From NCBI GenBank assembly GCA_964480775.1, contig CAYZRF010000002.1:60001-92000 (forward strand): DNA of 32,000 bases, written 5' to 3'. Both the position numbers and the translations under genes were made by a program. Of this stretch, positions 2-29,403 are shown piece by piece (position 1 is the first letter of the stretch; each line of letters starts with the position of its first letter). The notes beneath the pieces were generated by a model. It did not search any database, was not told the DNA's origin, and saw only the letters and a program-made list of their open reading frames with translations. The stretch is from an uncultured Nitrososphaerota archaeon (GTDB lineage Archaea > Korarchaeota > Korarchaeia > Korarchaeales > Korarchaeaceae).

Positions 2-205
2 GAGGCGCATCAAATCTTCAATAAAAGTAAGATATTGATTATAGATACTTCTTGTAAAAGCATTGATGCAATAGCAAGCGAAATAATAGACCTTGTTATT
101 TACAGAAAGTTATCAACAAACAAAAATGCTAAGAAACTCACAGATTGGTCTTTTAGAGCGCCTTGGATTTCAAAAATTCTTTCTTCCGCTTATAGTAGAA
201 CTTAG
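2..205 (+). CDS. C-terminal fragment of a small P-loop kinase-like protein (partial; 5' end lies outside the window)
   Basis: Frame 2 is open from the window edge to the TAG at 203-205. The translation ...EAHQIFNKSKILIIDTSCKSIDAIASEIIDLVIYRKL... resembles the C-terminal end of small archaeal nucleotide kinases. It is absent from the ORF track because it has no start in the window. It would overlap the convergent ATPase gene by 53 nt. Confidence 0.3.
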   Translation, partial: EAHQIFNKSKILIIDTSCKSIDAIASEIIDLVIYRKLSTNKNAKKLTDWSFRAPWISKILSSAYSRT

Positions 206-2006
206 GAGCAAGTGAAAACAAATAAGTCAAATCTTCATCTTCTAGCTCAGGCGGTAGATACTCTGGCTCTATTTTGATTCTTGGAATCTCTGAAGAGTTT
301 CTAAGTACTACGATACATTCACCAGTTCTTAAATGATGGATTTGATGAGCGATTTTTCCAATAGCCTTTACAGATGGTCCAAGCAAGCTGTGGATGAAAG
401 ATACATCCTGAGTAGAGCCCAAAGCGTGAATAATTTTTGTTGACGCATTTCTTATGATGTGCGAAGATAGACATGAAGGAGACTGGGAGATCACTATGAA
501 ACCCTCCCCATACTTTCTTAATTCGGAGATCATTCTATCTCCAATGGTCAGTCCACTAAGGTCTGTTAACATAGGCAGGACTCTATCGGCTTCCTCTAAC
601 ACCGTTATGTGCCTTACTCCACTAGTTCTTCCCTTCTCTTTGTTGTAGTAGTATATTCTTCTTAGTAACGTGAAGACAAACACCTCTCTGACGCCTTGTG
701 TAGCAATGTCTCTTAGTTCTATGCTAATTAAGCCGCTCATAAGATCTTCCATTCTAGGTAAACTCTCCTTACACAGAACTTTTCTGGCCTCTCCTCTAAC
801 CAGGGGATAAATTCTCCTCAGAAGAGCTCTTTTACTTTCCTGTTCGGCTTGGCCGGTGGTTTCAAAAGCAGCAATTTCCTCATACAAATCGATAAGTGTT
901 GGTGATTCTCCCTTTGTCGCCTGATCTCTCAAACGAATAAGTCCTTTCAATAGAAGGTATGTTTGTGGAGGAGTTAGGCCAAAAATGATAGTGAACTGCT
1001 CTGCAATTTCGTCTAACATGGATTCACCGGCATCTTCGAGGCCTTCTAGTACGTTAATCGACAACAAATCACTATCTATTTTAGGAGATATCACTCTGCC
1101 GCCCATTAAAAGAACTATGTCTCTATATTCGTTCTCATAATCAAAAATAAGAACAGGAATTCCAATTTCCCATATTTTTGATACCAGAAACTTTGAAGTC
1201 GTGGTCTTACCAGAACCAGTCCTTCCGAGTATGGCGGTATGATGACATAAGTCCTTTAGGCTTAGTTTAACTACTGAACCGTTAGGTTTTCTACCTAACT
1301 CCACTGACAAAGATTCGACTGGGTTTGTTGGTACACCTTCTTTGAGAATTATTCGAGCCAAAGCTAGCTGAAAACGAAAAAGAAGACCATCTGAGAGAGT
1401 TCTTAAGCGAGAGCCCTTCAAGGCTACAACATCCCAATTATCTCCTAATCGAGCTTTTATCGTGCTCTCCGCTCTGTCCAGCATCGATTTTGCTACTTTT
1501 AATCCTCCTACATCCTTCTCATTTACCCAAAGCAGGATTACTCTACTTTGAAAAACCTCTGCACTTTGATCGTTGTTCGAACACATGGTAAGATCTATCC
1601 AATATTTCTGGGGTTTTTTAGGAGAGCACACCATCATTAGAGAGGAATTAATACCCATATGGGCTAGTATCTCCGCTATTTGAGAGAATTTCGTTTCTAT
1701 ACTATTATCTTCAGAAGAACTAAGCTCTAGAGCCTTTACTAAGACACGATCATTCTTAATGTGAATTAGAATCTTGTCTTGAGTAAACAACACTTCGCTT
1801 AGGTTAGGATTTCTTTCGATTCTACTGCTATGAGATAAATCAGCTCTAAAATATAACACAAGAAGCGGTACGAAAATAACTAAAATCAAAACTCTAACAT
1901 CAACACTCATCAAAATTGGTAAGGCTCTTTTGTAAACTTCATACGCGATCAAAAGAGCTAGAAGACAAAAAGGGAATAAGTTAGATACCTCTTTACTTCC
2001 TAACAT
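153..2006 (-). CDS. Membrane-anchored HerA/FtsK/VirB4-superfamily (DUF87-like) ATPase, CedB-like
   Basis: 617-aa ORF. Two N-terminal hydrophobic helices (LFPFCLLALLIAYEVY, VRVLILVIFVPLLVLYF). Walker A ILGRTGSGKTT followed by IPVLIFDYENEY. Walker B ITVLEEADRV. HerA-type RKYGEGFIVISQSPSCLSSHIIRNASTKIIHAL. Its start overlaps the stop of the upstream TFB-like gene by 14 nt. Confidence 0.75.
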   Translation of the reverse strand: MLGSKEVSNLFPFCLLALLIAYEVYKRALPILMSVDVRVLILVIFVPLLVLYFRADLSHSSRIERNPNLSEVLFTQDKILIHIKNDRVLVKALELSSSEDNSIETKFSQIAEILAHMGINSSLMMVCSPKKPQKYWIDLTMCSNNDQSAEVFQSRVILLWVNEKDVGGLKVAKSMLDRAESTIKARLGDNWDVVALKGSRLRTLSDGLLFRFQLALARIILKEGVPTNPVESLSVELGRKPNGSVVKLSLKDLCHHTAILGRTGSGKTTTSKFLVSKIWEIGIPVLIFDYENEYRDIVLLMGGRVISPKIDSDLLSINVLEGLEDAGESMLDEIAEQFTIIFGLTPPQTYLLLKGLIRLRDQATKGESPTLIDLYEEIAAFETTGQAEQESKRALLRRIYPLVRGEARKVLCKESLPRMEDLMSGLISIELRDIATQGVREVFVFTLLRRIYYYNKEKGRTSGVRHITVLEEADRVLPMLTDLSGLTIGDRMISELRKYGEGFIVISQSPSCLSSHIIRNASTKIIHALGSTQDVSFIHSLLGPSVKAIGKIAHQIHHLRTGECIVVLRNSSEIPRIKIEPEYLPPELEDEDLTYLFSLAPKFYYKRKKEFLKSKAL

Positions 2007-2907: not shown

Positions 2908-3267
2908 TTACTGTGTTCCAAATCCTTTTATACATAGGTACACTTCTAAACCTTCAGAAATCTCAGAAAAAGCCTCAGATTTCAGGTTGATTATGGCCAC
3001 CAGCCCTCCAAAAGATAATATTGCCCTTTTATTTTCATTTTGAATGGAAAGCACTTTACCATGTAGAAGAATACCGTTTTCACACTTTGTATTCGTATTC
3101 TCAGTTGTGAAAAGTGAAACTTTCCCCTCCATTCCAACTTTAAATTTTCTAAAACTTTTAGGCAGTTCGATTTTGATGTCAGCTACTTTACCACTCAAGT
3201 AATAACGATGGATAGATTGTGCTTTGTCAAATTCAATATTATTTATCTTCACTTGTAGTTCCATCAC
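2908..3267 (-). CDS. rpoG: RNA polymerase subunit Rpo8 (RpoG, Rpb8 homolog)
   Basis: 119-aa ORF. The C-terminal LLHGKVLSIQNENKRAILSFGGLVAIINL...VYLCIKG matches the Rpb8/RpoG signature (hGkVy...a..SfGGLLm.l) as I remember it. No alignment was run. Confidence 0.6.
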   Translation of the reverse strand: MMELQVKINNIEFDKAQSIHRYYLSGKVADIKIELPKSFRKFKVGMEGKVSLFTTENTNTKCENGILLHGKVLSIQNENKRAILSFGGLVAIINLKSEAFSEISEGLEVYLCIKGFGTQ

Positions 3268-4031: not shown

Positions 4032-4106
4032 TGGTGGGCCGGGAGGGAATCGAACCCTCGACCTCCGCCTCGTAAGGGCGGCGTCATACCACTAGACCAC
4101 CGGCCC
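4032..4106 (-). tRNA. tRNA-Val (anticodon UAC), 3'-CCA encoded
   Basis: Reverse complement: GGGCCGGUGGUCUAGUGGUAUGACGCCGCCCUUACGAGGCGGAGGUCGAGGGUUCGAUUCCCUCCCGGCCCACCA. Cloverleaf has a 7-bp acceptor stem, anticodon stem CCGCC/GGCGG with loop CUUACGA, and T arm GAGGG-UUCGAUU-CCCUC. Confidence 0.93.
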
Positions 4107-4109
4107 AAC

Positions 4110-4198
4110 TGGCGCCGGGGGCGGGATTTGAACCCGCGCGGCCCGAACGGGCCATCGGCTTAGCAGGCCGACCCCCTACCGGACTAGGGCACCCCGGC
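4110..4198 (-). tRNA. tRNA-Ser (anticodon GCU), long variable arm, 3'-CCA encoded
   Basis: Reverse complement: GCCGGGGUGCCCUAGUCCGGUAGGGGGUCGGCCUGCUAAGCCGAUGGCCCGUUCGGGCCGCGCGGGUUCAAAUCCCGCCCCCGGCGCCA. Anticodon stem UCGGC/GCCGA with loop CUGCUAA. Variable arm GGCCC-GUUC-GGGCC. T arm GCGGG-UUCAAAU-CCCGC. Confidence 0.93.
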
Positions 4199-4229: not shown

Positions 4230-5002
4230 TTATTCATCCTTTTTCCAAAGAGCAGGATATAAATTCCTATCCATGATTACTCTTATGGGTTCAGCCACAG
4301 TCCCCCTATCCATCTCAATGAGTTCTTCTGAACTCACTAAGCTCCTAGCTAAAGCAACAAGTTCTCCCTTAAGAGTAAAAATTCCAACGGAACAATCTTT
4401 TCTCATCTCCTTAGAGAAGGCGCAGATTCCTGGAGCCTTAACACTTGCACCATGTGCAACTGACGCCACTGCTGTGTCTTTTATGATAACTTTAGGTAGA
4501 AGTTGTGCTACTATCGTCTCAAGGGGGATTATTTCATCCCTAAGATAGGCATCATTACCCGTATTTTCCCATAGGATCACGGCTCTTTCCAATTCTTGAA
4601 GAGTAATACTGCTAGCTTCTGTCAGAGGACCAGCCCTAATACGTCTGAGTTCTCTCATACTTGCCCCGCATCCCAAAAATTCTCCAATATCATGAAATAA
4701 TTTTCTTATGTAAGTGCCAGCCTCTACAGAGACTTTGAGCAGAACATACCTCCCATGCCTTTCAATCAGATTTATTTCGTAAATTCTTCTTGTTCTAAGC
4801 CTTCTCTTTACTGTGGCTTTAATTGGAGGTCTTTGAAAGATCAAACCAGTAAATTCTTTCAGTGCAAGAAGTAATGAATCGTCAGAAACTTCCCCATGCA
4901 GGTAGAGAACACCAACATACTCCTTTCCAGCTTTTGTCAGTAGTTTTGCTATCCTTGTGGCTCTTCCTAATAAAATGGGCAACACTCCGCTTACCTTGGG
5001 AT
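4230..5002 (-). CDS. cbf5: tRNA/rRNA pseudouridine synthase Cbf5, exon 2 (TruB catalytic core plus PUA domain)
   Basis: After splicing it continues (G)AU CCC AAG GUA... = D-PKVSGVLPILLGRATRIAKLL.... The track ORF 4230-4985 carries the rest of the TruB core and the C-terminal PUA-like region. The frame is continuous from 5002. Confidence 0.88.
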
Positions 5003-5031
5003 CTCCCTGAGCCTTCCTTAAGGAAGGCCCA
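5003..5031 (-). other. 29-nt bulge-helix-bulge (hBHBh') pre-mRNA intron inside cbf5
   Basis: Intron RNA is UGGGCCUUCCUUAAGGAAGGCUCAGGGAG. Outer helix UGGGA(5042-5038)/UCCCA(5001-4997). Central 4-bp helix CCCU(5037-5034)/AGGG(5008-5005). 3-nt bulges AGU(5033-5031) and AGA(5004-5002). Inner 9-bp helix with a UUAA loop. Excision restores the frame and the GTLDP motif. Confidence 0.85.
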
Positions 5032-5233
5032 CTAGGGTCCCACTATGCCCTATTTTACCAGAAAACCTCAAAATTTTCCTTATCTTTTGAGTTACCGCAT
5101 GAGAAGTAGGTCCTTGGGGTTTATCTAAGTTTATAACCCCATGGTCAAGGTACAGGTCTATTGGCCTTTTCTCTGGATAGAAGCCATAAGGTCCCGGCTC
5201 ACAATCTTGTTTTACAACAAGTTCCTCCTCCAT
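5032..5233 (-). CDS. cbf5: Pseudouridine synthase Cbf5, exon 1
   Basis: MEEELVVKQD...VINLDKPQGPTSHAVTQKIRKILRFSGKIGHSGTL(D). The last exon nucleotide (G, 5032) is the first base of the Asp codon. An SD-like GGAGAAAGTGAT lies upstream of the ATG. Confidence 0.88.
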
Positions 5234-7799: not shown

Positions 7800-8252
7800 T
7801 CACTGGGCCAATATGGCCTTTCCCCCAGCCTCCTCAATTTTCTTTATAGCACTTTCTGAGAAAGCTTTACACTTAATTGTTATGGGAGAACTAAGTCTTC
7901 CCATTCCTAAAACTTTGTCATATCCTGCCTTTGTAAGATCAACCTCAATTAGTCCCTCATCTGTCTTACTAGCAAGGTTAAGCCTCAAGAAATGTCCAAT
8001 TTTCTCTTCTATCTGTCTAAGATTTATTGTCTTTTTTGGAACAGCCTTTGGCACTTTAAAGCCTCTTCTACCACGCCCAAAGTAGTCCAAATCCTTCGCA
8101 GCAGTCCATGTCCACTTGTGCTTATGAAGCCCAGCTTTGCCTCTTCCACCCCTTCTTCCTCCTCCTCTGTGCTGTCTAAGCTTTCCATATCCATGAAACC
8201 TGCTTCCACGATATTTCTTAGTTTTCTTCTCTCTCCTTGGAATCGTCTTCAT
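7800..8252 (-). CDS. rpl15: Ribosomal protein uL15
   Basis: KKYRGSRFHGYGKLRQHRGGGRRGGRGKAGLHKHKW glycine/arginine-rich N-terminus, plus conserved operon position. Confidence 0.93.
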   Translation of the reverse strand: MKTIPRREKKTKKYRGSRFHGYGKLRQHRGGGRRGGRGKAGLHKHKWTWTAAKDLDYFGRGRRGFKVPKAVPKKTINLRQIEEKIGHFLRLNLASKTDEGLIEVDLTKAGYDKVLGMGRLSSPITIKCKAFSESAIKKIEEAGGKAILAQ

Positions 8253-8253
8253 A

Positions 8254-8745
8254 TCATATCATCCTCCTCAATAGTTCATTTATATCATTTCCTCGATACC
8301 CAAGCTCTCCCTTATCCTTCCATGCTCTTTTTGTGCTTCGTTTGAATCCTTTTCTCGGCGGCCTGAGTCTGAAGTAGGGCTTTAACCAGCCTATTTTATG
8401 AAATTTAACCTTATCATTAATTATGGCTCTAGCAAGATCTTCTATGCTGTTGAATTCGGTGTTTTCTGATAACCACTCATCTGTAAGCTTTCCACCATTT
8501 TTTAGCTCACCACGTTCTCTAAGAAGAAGAGAGAGGGTATCCAAGTCTATTTCTCCATAAGTTGAGTAATCCTTAATCCTGTTCAACATTCCTAGCTGGG
8601 TTGGTTCTTTAGGAATTATTGTAGCTCTAAATTTTCTTTTTAGATGAAGCATCTCCATTGTCGTTCGAACCTCTGGTCTAGCGTCAATAAGGCCTCTTAT
8701 CCTTATAACAGCCATAACTCTGCCATCGGAGCCCGTTCCTTTCAT
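8254..8745 (-). CDS. rpl30: Ribosomal protein uL30
   Basis: MAVIRIRGLIDARPEVRTTMEMLHLKRKFRATIIP. The true start may be the internal Met at residue 11. Confidence 0.92.
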   Translation of the reverse strand: MKGTGSDGRVMAVIRIRGLIDARPEVRTTMEMLHLKRKFRATIIPKEPTQLGMLNRIKDYSTYGEIDLDTLSLLLRERGELKNGGKLTDEWLSENTEFNSIEDLARAIINDKVKFHKIGWLKPYFRLRPPRKGFKRSTKRAWKDKGELGYRGNDINELLRRMI

Positions 8746-8811
8746 TTATAATTCCTCCAAGACCAAATGATCGATTTCAACACCTCAGATCTTGAACCCA
8801 CTTTTAAGGAT

Positions 8812-9453
8812 TCATATCTCTGATCTAGACACGAACTCTCTTTCCCCAACTGGTAACTGAATTGCCATCAGGTTTCTAAGTGCATTATGGATTGCAAAAG
8901 CATAATTCATTCTATTTCTCGTATTTCCCCTGGAGAAGACCCTTATATCTTTAATTCCTCCAAGAGATAGGATCACCTTAGCAACCTCGTTTGCAACAAG
9001 CCCAGCCCCCCTAGGGGCTGGAATAAGTTTTACTCTAACTGAACCCATCTTTCCAGAAACCGTGGCTGGTATCGAGTGCGGTCTACCACACCCACATTCC
9101 CAAGAACCACAACCCTTTCTAACCCTAATTAGATTGAGCTTAGCCCTTTTTATCGCATCGTTAAAAGCATCCCGAAATTCCTTACCCTTTCCTCTTCCAA
9201 CCCCAATGTAATCAGATCCGTCCCCTATCGCTATTACAAGTCTTAAACTGCTAAGCTCTCCAGCATCAGTTTGCCTCTGTACCCTTCTAACCTCTATGAT
9301 CTCTCGTCTTAACTCTGGTAGCAAAATGTCAACTATTTCAGGTTCTCTAATAACAAGCCCCTTTTTGAAAATTTCATCCAATGACTTTATTTTTCCCTCA
9401 GCAACTAGCTTTCCAAGCCTGGTTCTTGGAACCCATTCTTCTTCTAGACTCAA
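8812..9453 (-). CDS. rps5: Ribosomal protein uS5
   Basis: VQRQTDAGELSSLRLVIAIGDGSDYIGVGRGKGKEF...GSVRVKLIPAPRGAGLVA. Confidence 0.94.
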   Translation of the reverse strand: MSLEEEWVPRTRLGKLVAEGKIKSLDEIFKKGLVIREPEIVDILLPELRREIIEVRRVQRQTDAGELSSLRLVIAIGDGSDYIGVGRGKGKEFRDAFNDAIKRAKLNLIRVRKGCGSWECGCGRPHSIPATVSGKMGSVRVKLIPAPRGAGLVANEVAKVILSLGGIKDIRVFSRGNTRNRMNYAFAIHNALRNLMAIQLPVGEREFVSRSEI

Positions 9454-9470
9454 ATCATGGCACCCCCATT

Positions 9471-10082
9471 CTAAGCATTAAGCTTCCCTACTTCCTCCCC
9501 TATCTTTTCTAAAACTAATTGAAAGACCTTAGGAATCTCTTCGGGATCAACTTCCTTCTTCCGATATTCAGAAAATATTCTATCATAAAATTCTTCTCCT
9601 CTCTCCTTTAAAGCAAGAGCTAGTTCGGCTATATGTTTACCTTCTATCCTTTCCTGCTCAGGTAGGATCTCATCAGAGTGAGGGATCAAAATTCCAGCAT
9701 CTAAGGCTCCTTTAAGTGCGGCATAAAGTCTAGAACCCCTTGTTGAAGGGTATCTTCCTATGTCCAAAATCGCCTCCTTTATGCCAGCCTTTATCGCTCT
9801 TAGAGCAGCCATATAACCTGTAAGATATGCTGCAGGAAGATTTTTACAAGAAAATGACCAACCAAATTTCTCCAATTCTTTAGAATATGCGTAAGCGAGG
9901 ACTTCATCTCCTTCCAACTTAGATTTAACAAATTGAACCGTGACGAACCTGTCACTCCTTCGGACAACCATTCTGATTTTTCCACTTTTTAGAAGAGCAA
10001 GTCTTTTATGATAGTCTGTTTTTCCTTCCCTTCTCCTTCTAAATTTAACTTTGTATCTAGCTGATCTTGCCAACTCACTCAC
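9471..10082 (-). CDS. rpl18: Ribosomal protein uL18
   Basis: YKVKFRRRREGKTDYHKRLALLKSGKIRMVVRRS. GTG start overlaps the eL19 stop. Confidence 0.93.
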   Translation of the reverse strand: MSELARSARYKVKFRRRREGKTDYHKRLALLKSGKIRMVVRRSDRFVTVQFVKSKLEGDEVLAYAYSKELEKFGWSFSCKNLPAAYLTGYMAALRAIKAGIKEAILDIGRYPSTRGSRLYAALKGALDAGILIPHSDEILPEQERIEGKHIAELALALKERGEEFYDRIFSEYRKKEVDPEEIPKVFQLVLEKIGEEVGKLNA

Positions 10083-10512
10083 CTCTCGCGGGTACCACCC
10101 GTCTTCTCACATGAGATTTCAAGTGAGCGACGCTTGAAAACGTAGAAAGTCGGGGATAAAGCTCTCTGTATTCCTTTTTGCTTATTATCCCGCGATCTCT
10201 CATTTCTCTAAGGGTTTTTCTAAGAGCTCTTATCTTTCTCATCCACCTCATCTTCTTACTTAATCTAGCATACTTACTACCCTTATAGCTCCCAGGACCC
10301 CTTCTCTTACCTTTTCGAGCTCTGGCTCTTGCTCTGCTTGTTCCTCTTTTTTGAAGTACTTTAATTGCCCCTTGAGCAATTAATCTATCTATGTCTCTTC
10401 TGGTAACTGCTTCCTCTATATCTTCTATCTTCTCTGGGTCAAATTTAATGCGATCTATCCCCACACCAGCCACCTTGGCTGCTATTTTCTTTTGGTACTT
10501 TAGATCGGTCAT
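10075..10512 (-). CDS. rpl19e: Ribosomal protein eL19 (L19e)
   Basis: LKYQKKIAAKVAGVGIDRIKFDPEKIEDIEEAVTRRDIDRLI. ATGA overlap with eL32. Confidence 0.93.
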   Translation of the reverse strand: MTDLKYQKKIAAKVAGVGIDRIKFDPEKIEDIEEAVTRRDIDRLIAQGAIKVLQKRGTSRARARARKGKRRGPGSYKGSKYARLSKKMRWMRKIRALRKTLREMRDRGIISKKEYRELYPRLSTFSSVAHLKSHVRRRVVPARGE

Positions 10513-10904
10513 GGTTTCTCCCCAACCCCCCCTCTTGTGACTTTAATTCCTAACTCCTTTGCTTTCTCAATCAAAAGGAGCCTTTTTCTCCTTCCAACGG
10601 TTTTACCGATGTATACAATGACTTTTCCCCTTACTTCTTTGGGGATTCTTTCAAGATCAGAAACGCTATGAACTACCTTGGGTATAAGTCCTGTAGGATG
10701 CAAACCCCTAATCTTTTCTGGGTTCTTATAACCTATTGAAGGAACTTTTGGTTGGCCTTTCTTTCTCATCCTTTGCTTATTATCGATGCCGCGCGGTCTT
10801 CTCCAAGAAGTAAGACCATGACCATGCAAGTATCTTCCTACGTTTAAGAACTTGGGTTTTTTCTTCTTTAGCTTTAGAAGATTCTTTGATGAAGCCTTGC
10901 TCAT
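10509..10904 (-). CDS. rpl32e: Ribosomal protein eL32 (L32e)
   Basis: WRRPRGIDNKQRMRKKGQPKVPSIGYKNPEKIRGLHPTG. Confidence 0.93.
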   Translation of the reverse strand: MSKASSKNLLKLKKKKPKFLNVGRYLHGHGLTSWRRPRGIDNKQRMRKKGQPKVPSIGYKNPEKIRGLHPTGLIPKVVHSVSDLERIPKEVRGKVIVYIGKTVGRRKRLLLIEKAKELGIKVTRGGVGEKP

Positions 10905-10906
10905 TT

Positions 10907-11494
10907 TTATCCCTCCTTAAGAACGTATATACCATCCATAAATACTCGCGGATCCTTTCTTCGTATCTTGGTGGCCTGCCTTAAGTTCGCAGCCGTTTGT
11001 CCTACTTCTTCCTTTGAAATTCCTTCAACAATTATTTGATCTTCTTTGACGGTCACCTTAGTCGAGTCCCCTATTATCTTAGCCCTTCTTGGTTTCTTTT
11101 CACCAAGAAAGTTGTGTATGAGAATCGTTCTGTTAGCTTCATCCACTTCTACTCTAATTGGAAAGTGTGCAAATGCAACAATAAGCTTTTTCCTGAACCC
11201 CCGTGTTACTCCTATCATCATATTTTTCAAATGAGACTTCATCGTGTTCAGATAAGATCTCTCAAATTTCCTTGGATTAAATACTCTTAAAACCACCTTG
11301 TGAGTCTTATCATTTACTTCTATATGCAAGAGTCTAGAATTAAATTTCTTTCTCAATTCACCTTTTGGACCCCTAACTACAATTTCTTCCCCTTCTATTG
11401 ATACATTAACTTCTTTTTCTATGTCAACTTCTAATGATAAGGAGAAATCAGCGATTTTGTTCCAAACCTTTGTTGGAATTTCAGTTTTGCTCAT
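10907..11494 (-). CDS. rpl6: Ribosomal protein uL6
   Basis: Two-domain L6 pattern (VSIEGEEIVVRGPKGEL...GVTRGFRKKLIVAFAHFPI), plus operon position. Confidence 0.93.
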   Translation of the reverse strand: MSKTEIPTKVWNKIADFSLSLEVDIEKEVNVSIEGEEIVVRGPKGELRKKFNSRLLHIEVNDKTHKVVLRVFNPRKFERSYLNTMKSHLKNMMIGVTRGFRKKLIVAFAHFPIRVEVDEANRTILIHNFLGEKKPRRAKIIGDSTKVTVKEDQIIVEGISKEEVGQTAANLRQATKIRRKDPRVFMDGIYVLKEG

Positions 11495-11506
11495 TTTGTA
11501 ATCACC

Positions 11507-11899
11507 CTAATAACAGTACGCTATGAGAACCCCGCCCACTCCCAATTTTTTGGCTTCTTTATGAGACATGACCCCCTGGGAAGTCGAAACGATTATAACG
11601 CCTATGTCTCTGGCGGGCAAGAAAAGCTTCTCCCATGGCTCAAAATCATCTTTCTTTACCGAGAATCTGGGCTTTATACTCCCTGCTTTATTAATTTTCC
11701 CTAAAAGCTCGACTTTGTATTTTGCATGCCCTCCTTCGTATACTCTCTCAAATCTTCCAATGTAACCTTCTTTCTGTAAAATACTCAGGACTTTTCCAAT
11801 CAATTTTGAGGCTATGTCGATCGTAACTTCTCTTTTTCCAACTATAGAGGCGTTTGTTATCTTGCTAAGGGCATCTGCTAGAGGATCCATTCTAGTCAT
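11507..11899 (-). CDS. rps8: Ribosomal protein uS8
   Basis: [22 protein letters not shown]...[31 protein letters not shown]. Confidence 0.94.
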
Positions 11900-11911
11900 T
11901 TTACTTTCCCC

Positions 11912-12073
11912 TCACTCATACTTCTTCCATCCCATAAGGGGCGCCACTTCCCTGAAACACTGCCGACACAGGTACAGGTTGTACTTTCTTATGATGCCAT
12001 ATCCCACCCTACCACAGCGTCGACATCGATAAGCCCCCTTGCCTTTCGTTTTCTTTCTGGCCTCCATAGCCAT
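11912..12073 (-). CDS. rps14: Ribosomal protein uS14 (type Z, zinc-binding); too short for the supplied ORF track
   Basis: Hand translation of the minus strand gives [53 protein letters not shown] (53 aa, CxxC...CxxC). SD AGGTGAT lies upstream. It sits exactly between uL5 and uS8. Confidence 0.88.
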
Positions 12074-12074
12074 A

Positions 12075-12650
12075 CTAATCACCTTCCTCTACTATCTCAA
12101 GATTTAGATAATTCTTAGCGAAGACGATTGCCTCCTCTTTCGAGATAAGATGTTTTCTAGGAATATGACTTCTTTTAACTCTTCTCCTTTTTACCCTATA
12201 ACCAGCTCGTTCTAATGCAACATTGACATCCATACCAAATACGCCAATTTCGGCTTTATACTTAATTCCAGGGATATCAATGTGTTCCTTTATACCAAAA
12301 GAAAAGTTACCGAACTCATCAAATGAACTGGCTTTTATTCTCCTCCCCACGCCCTCCACAATTCTATCCAAGATTTCTAAAGCCCTCTTTCCCCTAATAG
12401 TGACAGAAACCGCTATAGGTTCTCCTTTTCTAATTCCAAAATTCCTTATCGTTCGTTTTGCTCTGTGTATGACTGGCTTTTGACTGGAAAGCTCCTCCAA
12501 AATCGAAGATGCCTTTTGTAAAATTTCACCACCACGACCTGGACAAATATGTAATGTTACTGAATGAACTCTTGGCATTAATGTCGGATTTTTCCTCCAT
12601 TTTTGGATAATTTCTTCCTCCATTGATATAGTATGTAGCCCAGAACTCAT
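12075..12650 (-). CDS. rpl5: Ribosomal protein uL5
   Basis: [15 protein letters not shown]...[23 protein letters not shown]...FGMDVNV. Confidence 0.93.
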
Positions 12651-13372
12651 TCTTCTCTCACCCTTATAGCTGGTACGCCTTCTCCAACCACCATTATATT
12701 TCTAGCAAGAACTCTGTACACCCTATCTGGCTGATCTACGTCTTTGGTCTCGATAAGATCACTAACTTTCTCTACTTTACAAATTCTACCCGCGTTCTCT
12801 CCTCTGAGAATGATTCCAACAAAACCCTCTTTAAGTGGGAAATACCGAAGTATCTCCTGACTAGGGACTTCTATCAGAAGAGAATCTCCCACAGAAAGTC
12901 CAGAATATTCACTGTCTCGATCAATAACAAAAGTTCTACCATCATGGGTACCTATCTGAAGTTTTCCTTCTTTAAATGTTACTTTCCTTTTGATTTTAAC
13001 TATTTTCTTATTAGCATCCTCCTTTGGAATTTCAATGGACTTTATGAGGTGCTTAGTGTCAGGAACTAGTCGTAAGTAAAGATCCATTTCTGGGATAGAA
13101 ATTACATCCATCAATCCTACAATGAATTTGTAGTCGTATCTCGGCTTTCCATCAACAAAGACTTTTTTCTGAGATATTATCTTACGGGCCTCTTTTCCAG
13201 TTAAGGCTAAACCTAAAACATCTCTTACCAAGATAAGGAGAGGAATTCCATCTTCTATCCTGTGAGGACCAGGCTTAGGTCTCGCTGCCCACTTTTTTAT
13301 TCTTCTTGGAACTGGCCAGTGTTTAGGGCTGGCCAATCTTTTGAGATGTGCGGTACTACCTTTTCTACCCAT
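12647..13372 (-). CDS. rps4e: Ribosomal protein eS4 (S4e)
   Basis: GSTAHLKRLASPKHWPVPRRIKKWAARPKPGPH.... 4-nt overlap with uL5. Confidence 0.94.
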   Translation of the reverse strand: MGRKGSTAHLKRLASPKHWPVPRRIKKWAARPKPGPHRIEDGIPLLILVRDVLGLALTGKEARKIISQKKVFVDGKPRYDYKFIVGLMDVISIPEMDLYLRLVPDTKHLIKSIEIPKEDANKKIVKIKRKVTFKEGKLQIGTHDGRTFVIDRDSEYSGLSVGDSLLIEVPSQEILRYFPLKEGFVGIILRGENAGRICKVEKVSDLIETKDVDQPDRVYRVLARNIMVVGEGVPAIRVREE

Positions 13373-13741
13373 TTAGCCCCCCCTCCTTTCTAATGCTGCC
13401 TTTCTTTCCTCATCTTTCAAGTCTAATTCTATAATCATAACTTTAGAAGGATGAATGGGTATTGGTACTTCCGTTCCATCAACTTTTCTTCGTCTTAAGC
13501 CCTCTATGTGAATCCTGTATTTCTTTCTGTCTACTTTAATTACCTTGCCTTCATGCATCTTGTAATCTCCTCTTAGTATTACAACCTTGTCTCCAACCTT
13601 GATCGGGAAAGACCTTGTAAGATATTTATCTCTGAGTTCTGGAGACAAGTGAGCTGACATGATCTTGCCTCGATGGTGTTTCGGGGCTCTATATAAGTAC
13701 TTTCTTTGTTTCGATGGTTTAGATGATTTAGGTCTTTTCAT
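13373..13741 (-). CDS. rpl24: Ribosomal protein uL24
   Basis: KOW motif [23 protein letters not shown] prefer the ATG at 13741 ([14 protein letters not shown]..., SD GAGGTG 7 nt upstream) over the TTG at 13762 given in the track. Confidence 0.9.
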
Positions 13742-13754
13742 AAACAACACCTCT

Positions 13755-14183
13755 TCATACAACGGTTGCTGCTAATGCGCCCAGGGCTGGCCAACGTTCT
13801 ATTGCTTCTTTAGCAATCGGACCCTTAACCTCGCTACCTTTAGGAACTCCCTCGTTGTCTACTAGAACTGCAGCGTTGTCCTCAAACTGAATCCATTGTC
13901 CGTTCTTCCTCCTGTAAGCTTTTTTCTGCCTAACAACTACTGCTCTCATTGGTTTGTGCATGAGTTCATTTTTACCCTTTTTTACTACAACTACCACCAT
14001 ATCTCCGACACTTGCAGAAGGCAACCGGCCCTTTCTACCTTTGTATCCCACCGTACCAACTACTTCTAATATTCTAGCGCCAGTATTGTCCGCACATTTG
14101 ATTCTGGCAAGTGTTGGAAGGCCACGAGTTATTTTAGGTTTAACGCCTTGAACCTTGCGTCTCCTTGCAAGCCTTCTAGCCAA
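13755..14183 (-). CDS. rpl14: Ribosomal protein uL14
   Basis: [49 protein letters not shown] start preceded by SD GGAGGGTGA (14187-14195). Confidence 0.94.
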
Positions 14184-27380: not shown

Positions 27381-27854
27381 GTGGGATGTACATTGCCATC
27401 ATTCGGATATTCATATCAAGAACTTAAGGACAATGAAGCACGAGCATCAGGAAGAGACCTTAGAGTCTCTTACAAAGAGATGGTTGAGCTTCTATCTGCT
27501 ATAAGGGGATTAAAGATAGATAAAGCGAAACAATTGCTAGAGGATGTAGCGTCCCTAAGGAGGCCGGTACCTTTTAAGAGATATGTAAAAGGAGTGGGTC
27601 ATAGAAAACAGCTTCAAGGCTGGAAGATAGGTAGATATCCTGTTAAAGCGGCCAAAATTGTTTTGAAGATTCTGAAAAATGTAGAATATAATGCAACAAA
27701 CAAAGGTTTAGATCCAGAACGCTTGTACATAAAACACGCCGCTGCTCACAAAGGACCTAAGCTTAGAAGATTCTTTCCTAGAGCTTTTGGACGGGCTACT
27801 CCAAAGGTAGAACAACTTGTTCATGTAGAAATTGTGGTGGAGGAGAGAGAATGA
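27381..27854 (+). CDS. rpl22: Ribosomal protein uL22
   Basis: ASGRDLRVSYKEMVELLSAIRGLKIDKAKQLLEDV...HVEIVV. GTG start is uncertain; the TTG at 27393 is also possible. Confidence 0.9.
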   Translation: MGCTLPSFGYSYQELKDNEARASGRDLRVSYKEMVELLSAIRGLKIDKAKQLLEDVASLRRPVPFKRYVKGVGHRKQLQGWKIGRYPVKAAKIVLKILKNVEYNATNKGLDPERLYIKHAAAHKGPKLRRFFPRAFGRATPKVEQLVHVEIVVEERE

Positions 27855-28639
27855 GCGAAGGAGCAAAGCCCATATACAAAAGAATAGTCGAGGAAGGATG
27901 GCTTAAAGCAAGACTTCAGGAATTCTTTGAGTCTACACTTAGAACGGCAGGATTTCATAAAGTGGATGTAGTAAAAACACCAATTAGAGAAGTTGTAACA
28001 ATTTATGCTGATCGGCCTGGAATTGCAATTGGAAAAGGGGGAAAGAGGATTAAAGAGATAACAGAATCGATGAGAAGAGAATTTGGGTTCAAAAACCCCT
28101 ATCTCAGAATAGAAAAAGTAGAAGAACCTTTCCTAAGCGCTCAAATAGTCGCTAACTACATAGCAAGAAGGATATTAAAGGGAGAGAGGCACAGAAGAGT
28201 CGCCTTTGCTGCACTTAGAAGGGTTATGATGGCTGGGGCTGAAGGAGTAGAGATTAGGATATCTGGAAAATTTGGAAAAAGAGCGAGAGAAGACAGATTT
28301 AGAGCTGGAGTTATTTATCGTTGCGGTGGCGACTATTTAGAGAATGTAGAGTATGCCGTGAGGAATATACTCTTACCTCAAGGGTCTATGGGAATAAGAG
28401 TTAGGATAGCTAAACCTGGAACAAGGTTACCTGGCAAACCTTCAATTAGGGAAGAGGAAATAGAAAAAATCTTGACAGAAAAATCATTAGAAGAGGAAGA
28501 GGAGAAGGAAGAAATATCTAAAGAAGAATCTGAAGAGACAATTACCGAAGAAAAAGTTAGAGAAGAGGTAGAGGAGGAGGAAGAGAATGCCGAAGATGAA
28601 GGCGGAGGAGTTAAGGAATCTGAGCAGGGAGGAACTTGA
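27851..28639 (+). CDS. rps3: Ribosomal protein uS3 with a long acidic C-terminal tail
   Basis: KH domain (IYADRPGIAIGKGGKRIKEI) and S3 C-domain. ATGA overlap with uL22. A tail of about 60 aa is rich in E/K. Confidence 0.92.
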   Translation: MSEGAKPIYKRIVEEGWLKARLQEFFESTLRTAGFHKVDVVKTPIREVVTIYADRPGIAIGKGGKRIKEITESMRREFGFKNPYLRIEKVEEPFLSAQIVANYIARRILKGERHRRVAFAALRRVMMAGAEGVEIRISGKFGKRAREDRFRAGVIYRCGGDYLENVEYAVRNILLPQGSMGIRVRIAKPGTRLPGKPSIREEEIEKILTEKSLEEEEEKEEISKEESEETITEEKVREEVEEEEENAEDEGGGVKESEQGGT

Positions 28640-28787
28640 AGCAAGGCTTCGAGAGCTAAGAGAACAGCTATTTTCTCTTAATACCAAGTCAGCGCTCGGT
28701 ACTTTGGAAAAAACTCATATGAGAAAGGAAATAAGAAGAGAAGTTGCTAGAATCCTTACAATCATGAGAGAGAGGGGCTTTCTTTGA
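28587..28787 (+). CDS. rpl29: Ribosomal protein uL29
   Basis: MKAEELRNLSREELEARLRELREQLFSL. Start at 28587 or 28596; both lie inside the uS3 reading frame. Confidence 0.9.
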   Translation: MPKMKAEELRNLSREELEARLRELREQLFSLNTKSALGTLEKTHMRKEIRREVARILTIMRERGFL

Positions 28788-28801
28788 GGGGGAAACACAA
28801 A

Positions 28802-29065
28802 ATGAAAAAGTCAGACCTTCCTTATCATGAACTGATAGGTCTTAAGACTAAGGTTATCTTTTCACCAGATCCAACTCAAATAGGAATTTCTGGTAAAATA
28901 ATTGATGAAACAGCAAATCTTCTTATAATAAGAACTGAAAAAGGTGTAAAAAAGATACCAAAAGATGGCAGGGTTTTTGAGTTTATTATTAGAGAAAAGC
29001 AGGTTGTCGAGCTTAATGGAAAGAACATTCTTGGAAGACCTGAAGAAAGGGTGAAGAAATTATGA
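28802..29065 (+). CDS. rnp1: RNase P protein component 1 (Rpp29/Pop4)
   Basis: ELIGLKTKVIFSPDPTQIGISGKIIDETANLLII...ILGRPEERVKK. Canonical position between uL29 and uS17. I prefer the ATG at 28802 (SD GAGGGGG) over the TTG at 28784. Confidence 0.88.
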   Translation: MKKSDLPYHELIGLKTKVIFSPDPTQIGISGKIIDETANLLIIRTEKGVKKIPKDGRVFEFIIREKQVVELNGKNILGRPEERVKKL

Positions 29066-29403
29066 GGAGACTTCCAGATTATTTAATTGAGGATGTAGAA
29101 AAGCCAACTGAAGAATGCAATGATGATAAATGCCCTTGGCATGGAGACATTTCACTTAGAAAGAAAACCCTAATTGGTCGAGTTGTGTCTACAAAAATGA
29201 CTGGCACAATCAGTGTTGAAATATCTTGGCTGAGATATGTTCCAAAATATAAAAGATACGAGAGGAGAAGAAGGAAAATTCACGCACACATCCCGCCTTG
29301 CTTATCAGTTAAGGAAGGAGATCTTGTTAAGATCATAGAAGTAAGAAGATTAGCAAAAACAGTGGCCTTTGTCACGCTAGGCAAGGTGAAAGGAAAGCAA
29401 TAG
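29062..29403 (+). CDS. rps17: Ribosomal protein uS17
   Basis: CNDDKCPWHGDISLRKKTLIGRVVSTKMTGTISVE...KEGDLVKIIEVRRLAKTVAF. Confidence 0.93.
   Translation: MRRLPDYLIEDVEKPTEECNDDKCPWHGDISLRKKTLIGRVVSTKMTGTISVEISWLRYVPKYKRYERRRRKIHAHIPPCLSVKEGDLVKIIEVRRLAKTVAFVTLGKVKGKQ

Follow-up and report, generated by a model that had tools for sequence, protein, structure and literature searches.

Protein-coding introns are very rare in archaea, and the one in cbf5 is the textbook case. We analyzed a cbf5 locus on the minus strand of a 32,000-nucleotide stretch (hereafter the window) of contig CAYZRF010000002.1 from an uncultured archaeon (assembly GCA_964480775.1, positions 60,001 to 92,000), in which 29 nucleotides (nt) that very probably constitute an intron of the bulge-helix-bulge (BHB) type interrupt the gene within the codon for the catalytic Asp. 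The gene appears there as two open reading frames (ORFs) on the same strand: an upstream ORF of 71 amino acids (aa) at 5018-5233, whose C-terminal end is GKIGHSGTLVGLP followed by a stop, and a downstream ORF of 251 aa at 4230-4985, which opens with a GTG start and LPILLGRATR and lies in a different frame. The minus strand reads CAU AGU GGG ACC CUA G-UGGGCCUUCCUUAAGGAAGGCUCAGGGAG-AU CCC AAG GUA AGC GGA GUG, with hyphens at the boundaries of the interruption, and in the unspliced frame a stop is reached five codons past GTL. Deleting 5031-5003, a segment that is no multiple of 3 in length and holds an in-frame UAA (TAA in the DNA), gives a 975-nt coding sequence of 324 aa plus a stop, in which the junction reads GHSGTL-D-PKVSGVLPILLGRATR (the longer stretch across it is GHSGTLDPKVSGVLPILLGRATR). 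The catalytic Asp codon is split over this junction, with its G at 5032 and its AU at 5002-5001. The parts of the locus are as follows:

5032 to 5233, minus strand: cbf5 exon 1, from the ATG at 5233-5231, comprising 67 codons and the G (5032) of the catalytic Asp codon; its product carries the DKCLD domain and the beginning of TruB_N
5003 to 5031, minus strand: predicted cbf5 intron (BHB), 29 nt, DNA TGGGCCTTCCTTAAGGAAGGCTCAGGGAG, as RNA UGGGCCUUCCUUAAGGAAGGCUCAGGGAG
4230 to 5002, minus strand: cbf5 exon 2, from the AU of the Asp codon (5002-5001) to the TAA stop (4232-4230); its product carries the remainder of TruB_N, then TruB_C_2 and PUA

An earlier sequence-only reading of this DNA had described the two ORFs with these frames, coordinates and ends, in agreement with the ORF list. 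The minus-strand sequence that it quoted matches the window letter for letter, and the 29-nt deletion, the in-frame UAA, the joining of G to AU and the 975-nt, 324-aa product that it derived were all recomputed and are correct to the base.

The product of the joined exons has the features of a full-length Cbf5. It scores 394.5 bits against the NCBIfam Cbf5 equivalog NF003280 (cutoff 242), covering profile positions 12-321 of 323, and 374.7 bits against TIGR00425 (cutoff 238), and the cutoffs of both models are passed by the spliced product only. Its domain set (DKCLD, TruB_N, TruB_C_2 and PUA) is complete. Alignment of the 324-aa product to Cbf5 orthologs, a check proposed in the sequence-only reading, leaves no gap at the junction: against the Pyrococcus Cbf5 structures (chains 2aus and 3lwo; E about 1e-97) the alignment runs ungapped over the junction and through GTLDPKVSG, with GHSGTLDPKVSGVLPI of the query opposite GHGGTLDPKVSGVLPV (the pair given as GTLDPKVSGVLP). 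The claim that joining restores the GTLDP motif with its catalytic Asp was therefore sound, since GTLDPKVSG is regained and the Cbf5 equivalog is passed. By these profile and structure matches, the predicted spliced product is Cbf5, an RNA-guided pseudouridine synthase, with its catalytic Asp present.

The RNA across both junctions folds into a BHB motif composed of an outer helix (h), a central helix (H) and an inner helix (h'), with a bulge on either side of the central helix. The elements are listed here, with the percentage of paired cells taken from the clade alignment described below:

4997 to 5042, minus strand: complete hBHBh' motif, spanning both exon-intron junctions
5038 to 5042, minus strand: outer helix h, 5' strand UGGGA (exon 1), partner 4997-5001; 97.1% of cells paired in the clade alignment
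4997 to 5001, minus strand: outer helix h, 3' strand UCCCA (exon 2), partner 5042-5038
5034 to 5037, minus strand: central helix H of 4 base pairs (bp), 5' strand CCCU (exon 1), partner 5005-5008; 100% paired in the clade
5005 to 5008, minus strand: central helix H, 3' strand AGGG (intron), partner 5037-5034
5031 to 5033, minus strand: bulge 1, AG^U, with predicted 5' cleavage between 5032 and 5031
5002 to 5004, minus strand: bulge 2, AG^A, with predicted 3' cleavage between 5003 and 5002
5009 to 5030, minus strand: inner hairpin h', 9 bp (GGGCCUUCC/GGAAGGCUC) with a UUAA loop, wholly intronic

In the window, two 3-nt bulges lie on opposite strands with a 4-bp helix between them, which is the arrangement that defines a BHB, and with an h of 5 bp and an h' of 9 bp the motif has the strict hBHBh' form. 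The helices, bulges, inner 9-bp helix and UUAA loop drawn in the sequence-only reading are all borne out by the sequence, and cuts behind the second nucleotide of either bulge do yield the exact in-frame junction, as that reading had it. Cleavage at this position is the published rule for cbf5 introns (PMC2738675). The folding z-score of the region is -3.2 relative to dinucleotide shuffles.

We scanned both strands of the window for the strict motif (h of at least 5 bp, H of 4 bp, two 3-nt bulges, h' of at least 8 bp and an intron of up to about 60 nt) and obtained a single match, at the cbf5 site, compared with a mean of 0.17 per window in 30 dinucleotide shuffles. A loose BHB scan, with h and h' of at least 4 bp each, gave 62 matches in the window, and the loose motif is therefore uninformative by itself. 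A BHB motif carries little weight by itself; what counts is its placement at the very nucleotide that restores both the frame and the catalytic motif. Another BHB-like match, at 12496-12373 on the minus strand (h 5, h' 9, 124 nt between the cut sites), is probably due to chance, because it lies inside an intact 191-aa ORF (12075-12650) and its removal breaks the frame. When the whole window was searched with Rfam at the gathering threshold, no family covered the cbf5 intron element, and a search of 4900-5150 at E<=10 returned HIV_FS2 as its sole match (E=4.7), on the opposite strand and attributable to chance.

The same insertion recurs in related genomes. We retrieved the DNA of eight related contigs, QMVZ01000070.1 and CAZUBM010000005.1 among them, which stem from assemblies of Guaymas Basin and other hydrothermal or sediment samples; a ninth fetched locus, L006, represents the sequence of the window itself as found in a different assembly. 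In all eight related contigs an insertion separates the G of the Asp codon from its AT, at the same nucleotide as in the window, and these contigs give six distinct versions beyond that of the window, so that the clade holds seven distinct sequences. Insertion lengths over the clade are 29 (window), 32, 33, 37 and 38 nt, mostly no multiples of three. The 33-nt intron of L001, L002 and L010 keeps the reading frame; in L001 and L002, those checked, it contains one or two in-frame stops. Frame-preserving cbf5 introns have been noted in some Desulfurococcales too (Yokobori et al. 2009, PMC2738675). The fetched contigs of the clade have a common gene order of secY, EMC3-like, L34e, L14e and cbf5, and in each of the nine contigs examined the locus is called as two pieces. 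Public gene callers give an ORF of about 70 aa with DKCLD and another of about 250 aa, which is the outcome that the sequence-only reading had expected of automatic annotation. Every one of the closest public Cbf5 relatives (74-83% identity) is annotated at a length of 193-254 aa, corresponding to exon 2 only, and those of the next tier (57-59% identity) are full length.

Across this clade the proposed structure is conserved through changes in sequence. In an alignment of the seven distinct sequences, which is a small sample, 97.7% of the cells in the proposed structure are standard pairs. Five pairs of the inner helix have changed on both sides in a compensatory manner, and a U-A pair of the central helix in the window is U-G in relatives. 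None of 500 shuffles reached the observed percentage of pairing, the observed number of both-side changes or the observed covariation score, and sliding the 3' partners as a control brought pairing down to 30-60%. All seven distinct copies have the strict hBHBh' form, with an h of 4-5 bp and an h' of 8-14 bp in the relatives. We also observed that most positions of the inner hairpin differ between the window (GGGCCUUCC...) and its closest relatives L001 and L007 (GACCUCUUA...), whose proteins are 81-83% identical to that of the window. The alignment indicates that the inner-hairpin sequence turns over fast and that its pairing is kept.

The exons show the opposite pattern. Differences between the window and L001 number 8/4/28 at codon positions 1/2/3 in exon 1 and 34/13/103 in exon 2; they fall mainly at third positions, which points to purifying selection on both exons in the splice-defined frame. 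Within GGG ACC CTR G-AT CCC, the exon bases that form the BHB are invariant in the clade, third positions included, and the sequence of the outer helix h is likewise invariant because both of its strands are coding. GGG, ACC and CCC are minor codons in the window's genome, with 14%, 18% and 19% usage, respectively. The BHB-forming codons vary freely in a set of 74 intron-less cbf5 genes, not one of which reads GGG ACC CTN GAY CCN. These control loci came from a metagenome scan with the Cbf5 profile and comprise relatives at <=50% identity only; the pattern used in the scan, GTLDPKV[ST]G, spans the splice site and thus favours uninterrupted genes, which makes the scan uninformative on the distribution of the intron. 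Four intron-less loci that were fetched all encode the Leu by TTR, a choice that would disrupt the central helix.

The cbf5 pre-mRNA intron has reportedly been the subject of work by Watanabe et al. in 2002 and Yoshinari et al. in 2006. The kind of element described here has been known since 2002 and involves no new mechanism. An intron of 16-44 bp that interrupts the catalytic residue's codon was described in cbf5 of Desulfurococcales and Sulfolobales (Yokobori et al. 2009, PMC2738675), and its splicing by EndA, the tRNA-splicing endonuclease, has been demonstrated experimentally (PMC2738675; PMC10485636). The sequence-only reading had pointed to such introns in Aeropyrum and Sulfolobus and had proposed a comparison of insertion sites. 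We compared four crenarchaeal loci (A. pernix, Saccharolobus islandicus, Ignisphaera aggregans and Staphylothermus marinus). In each of them the same Asp codon is split behind its first base, so that site and phase are exactly those of the window; the intron measures 39 nt in I. aggregans and 36 nt in S. marinus, equal to the published values.

The likeness extends beyond the gene, nucleotide and phase, which can be written for both as ACC CUN G-intron-AY CCN AAR. The introns are in the same size class (29 nt in the window, 32-38 in its relatives and 16-44 in the published set) and have no ORF inside; an exon-exon outer helix GGGA/UCCY and an exon-intron central helix CCCU/RGGG are cut by the same rule; and the crenarchaeal locus, too, is annotated as two ORFs. 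As regards a possible common descent with the crenarchaeal intron, the window and I. aggregans have the 3' end GGGGAG-AUCC and the site in common, but those bases are forced by pairing to coding sequence, and the intron is missing from the nearest outgroup and from all sampled lineages in between. The differences lie in the regularity of the motif and in the intron itself. Whereas the window clade is uniformly strict hBHBh' (seven of seven distinct copies), the motif is relaxed at several crenarchaeal loci, with two of four central pairs in S. marinus and a broken outer helix in I. aggregans, and most crenarchaeal cbf5 motifs have been called unconventional (PMC2738675). The intron opens with A in the four crenarchaeal copies but with U or C in the window clade, and the inner helices are unrelated except for the closing G-C and two C-G pairs. 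The hosts also differ, the crenarchaeal ones belonging to Desulfurococcales or Sulfolobales and that of the window being placed outside both.

Other substrates of the same machinery offer further comparisons. Canonical archaeal tRNA introns (hBHBh', position 37/38) resemble the cbf5 element in their two 3-nt bulges and 4-bp helix, their similar length and the predicted use of EndA and RtcB; the cbf5 substrate, in contrast, is an mRNA without a tRNA body, and its flanking helices are coding, which limits synonymous codon choice. The HVO_1309 mRNA of Haloferax volcanii, as summarised in PMC10485636, is likewise an archaeal mRNA cleaved at a BHB by EndA, and in an organism without the (alpha-beta)2 enzyme; it concerns another gene in another lineage, and the likeness is drawn from that summary.

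We next consider the host. No cbf5 intron was recorded in Thermoproteales, Cenarchaeum, Nitrosopumilus or Ca. Korarchaeum cryptofilum in the 2009 study (PMC2738675). In a rough neighbor-joining tree of Cbf5 (244 columns, 200 bootstraps), the window clade (100%) groups with intron-less sequences that include Korarchaeota-labelled ones (99%), and the clade of Desulfurococcales and Sulfolobales stands apart from it. SecY gives a similar picture: identity is 67-96% within the window's own clade and 55-63% in the next tier, where the only named matches are 'Candidatus Korarchaeum sp.' and 'uncultured korarchaeote', and Bathyarchaeota, Nitrososphaerota and other named matches reach <=50%. In the Cbf5 alignment of the 2009 supplement, which is damaged by optical character recognition and suitable for rough ranking only, K. 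cryptofilum ranks highest at 54%, narrowly ahead of the rest. The relatives' NCBI labels ('Thermoproteota archaeon', 'uncultured Nitrososphaerota archaeon') conflict with these markers; we took them as phylum-level placeholders and set them aside because Thaumarchaeota references are the least similar among the TACK sequences (42-44%). The placement as Korarchaeota-affiliated, outside Desulfurococcales and Sulfolobales, is accordingly a rough one, from two markers and a distance tree rather than phylogenomics. The contig of the nearest outgroup (GCA_054037735.1) matches in gene order, and its GGT ACC TTA GAT CCC is uninterrupted; neither this outgroup nor any of the intervening lineages sampled has the cbf5 intron. 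We found no prior report of a cbf5 intron in a Korarchaeota-like lineage in the open-access literature searched. The sequence-only reading made no mention of a host outside the lineages known to carry the intron. What is new is the probable host, in that a strict cbf5 intron at the identical nucleotide occurs in a Korarchaeota-like clade whose nearest relatives are intron-less. RNA polymerase subunit G is characteristic of Crenarchaeota and Korarchaeota, and a 119-aa ORF in the window (2908-3267, minus strand) has a sub-threshold Pfam match to it (PF16992; E=5.6e-5, 23.6 bits, cutoff 27), which, if real, would fit the lineage proposed here.

Based on these observations, we consider it very probable that the window's cbf5 is a functional gene with a BHB intron removed by the tRNA-splicing machinery. 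The sequence, the fold, its covarying conservation, the restoration of frame and motif, and the identity of the site with that of known cases are what the present data show. Several points weigh against this reading. The strict hBHBh' fold of the window has a free energy of -27.1 kcal/mol, compared with -27.4 for the minimum free energy (MFE) structure, and in the window, L002, L009 and L010 the MFE structure shifts the register by one pair, giving bulges of 2 nt and 1 nt instead of two of 3 nt, a shift favoured by 0.3-1.1 kcal/mol in the three checked; in L001, L007 and L011 the unconstrained MFE structure is the strict hBHBh' itself. Neither EndA nor RtcB was found encoded in the window, in scans that covered most but not all of the larger ORFs. 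Finally, the (alpha-beta)2 form of EndA has been described as conserved across TACK 'with the exception of Korarchaeota' (PMC5829648).

The report of two ORFs in different frames by gene callers would also be expected of a decaying pseudogene or an assembly artefact, in which the 29 nt were a functionless disruptive insertion. The same interruption, however, is found in nine contigs from different samples and assemblers, both halves of the gene are under purifying selection with changes mainly at third positions, and the insertion retains a covarying structure whose pairing exon codons are frozen. A lesion kept at one nucleotide across 17-26% protein divergence, with the rest of the gene intact, is not expected of a pseudogene, and we regard this explanation as extremely unlikely. 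A split gene, whose two ORFs are translated separately into a two-piece Cbf5 with no RNA splicing, is the least improbable of the alternatives: such genes are known in archaea, and exon 1 by itself makes a complete ORF that starts from an ATG of its own and encodes a recognisable DKCLD domain. Yet the catalytic Asp would be in neither product, as ORF 1 ends in GTLVGLP and a stop, and the first start in the exon 2 frame is the GTG at Val74, downstream of both Asp68 and PKVSG. The predicted start of ORF 2 drifts among relatives, giving 193-254 aa with no conserved start codon, and the BHB, the covariation and the frozen exon codons would be left unexplained, so that we consider a split gene very unlikely.

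A ribosome could in principle cross the 29 nt by bypass or frameshifting, with the hairpin as a stimulatory element, and the locus does combine a stable hairpin at the discontinuity with an in-frame stop just past the take-off region. Matched take-off and landing codons are absent, though, and the skip needed would vary among relatives (29, 32, 33, 37 and 38 nt). Bypass cannot build an Asp codon from bases on both sides of a gap, the one frameshift-element match in the lax Rfam search (HIV_FS2, E=4.7, opposite strand) is at chance level, and the same structure is a verified splicing substrate in Crenarchaeota (PMC2738675). Such translational recoding is, in our judgment, scarcely credible.

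Under the favoured explanation of a spliced intron, homology and comparative evidence suggest the following sequence of events, in which cleavage, ligation and the enzymes performing them are proposed by analogy with known BHB substrates. The cbf5 gene would be transcribed, probably in one unit with L34e and L14e upstream of it, and exon GGGACCCUAG would pair with the intron AGGG and the downstream exon AUCCCA to form the strict hBHBh', closed by the 9-bp hairpin. EndA would then cut past the second nucleotide of each 3-nt bulge, and an RtcB-type ligase would join the exons and probably also circularise the 29-nt intron. The joined mRNA would be translated into the 324-aa Cbf5, whose catalytic Asp codon, G-AU, would exist only after splicing. 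Tolerance of relaxed motifs is a property of the (alpha-beta)2 form of EndA. A strict BHB should be cleavable by every EndA type, and the uniformly strict motif of the window clade would fit a narrow-specificity EndA.

The surroundings of the gene are as follows. Two tRNA genes on the minus strand, tRNA-Ser(GCU) at 4110-4198 and tRNA-Val(UAC) at 4032-4106, lie 3 nt apart, beginning 31 nt downstream of the cbf5 stop; both are intron-less, and they may be co-transcribed with cbf5. In the nearest outgroup (L017), S13-S4-S11 stand in place of the tRNA pair. Farther along, a 617-aa HerA/FtsK-type ATPase (153-2006, minus strand) has the DNA-translocating ATPase CedD as its best NCBIfam model, at 151.9 bits against a cutoff of 600, and by this score it is a relative, not an ortholog; a divergent TFIIB-like ORF (1993-2805) adjoins it. 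Ribosomal-protein genes form two blocks on opposite strands, namely L22-S3...S17 at 27381-29403 (plus strand) and a run of ORFs at 7800-14183 (minus strand) that ends at secY and whose members we assume to be ribosomal proteins from their position upstream of secY. Between the blocks lie genes for PolB, GatD/GatE and a trio of HMG-CoA synthase, thiolase and OB-fold protein.

The occurrence of the intron at the identical nucleotide in a second, separate clade reopens the question of when and how the cbf5 intron arose, with ancient origin and many losses, transfer and recurrent insertion as the options. It bears on the published analysis, in which a single gain was placed in the ancestor of Desulfurococcales and Sulfolobales (PMC2738675). 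One option is that the intron predates the split of the Korarchaeota-like and crenarchaeal lineages and was lost many times. Alternatively, BHB mini-introns may have been acquired repeatedly or horizontally at one nucleotide, a site predisposed to this because GGG-ACC-CUN-GAU-CCC is a pre-formed half-BHB. Given the strict motif and the reported absence of the broad-specificity (alpha-beta)2 EndA from Korarchaeota, the lineage may splice mRNA with a narrow-specificity EndA. Taken jointly, that the cbf5 intron was no one-off gain in Desulfurococcales and Sulfolobales but is either ancient or the result of repeated or horizontal acquisition, and that it is perhaps spliced by a narrow-specificity EndA, is a tentative proposal to which we give rather less than an even chance. 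If a narrow-specificity EndA does splice here, the proposed link of archaeal pre-mRNA splicing to a hetero-oligomeric enzyme would be broken, and the lineage is a test case for the proposed dependence on heterotetrameric EndA. At a practical level, an essential cbf5 that pipelines report as two fragments distorts both completeness and pseudogene statistics for this lineage.

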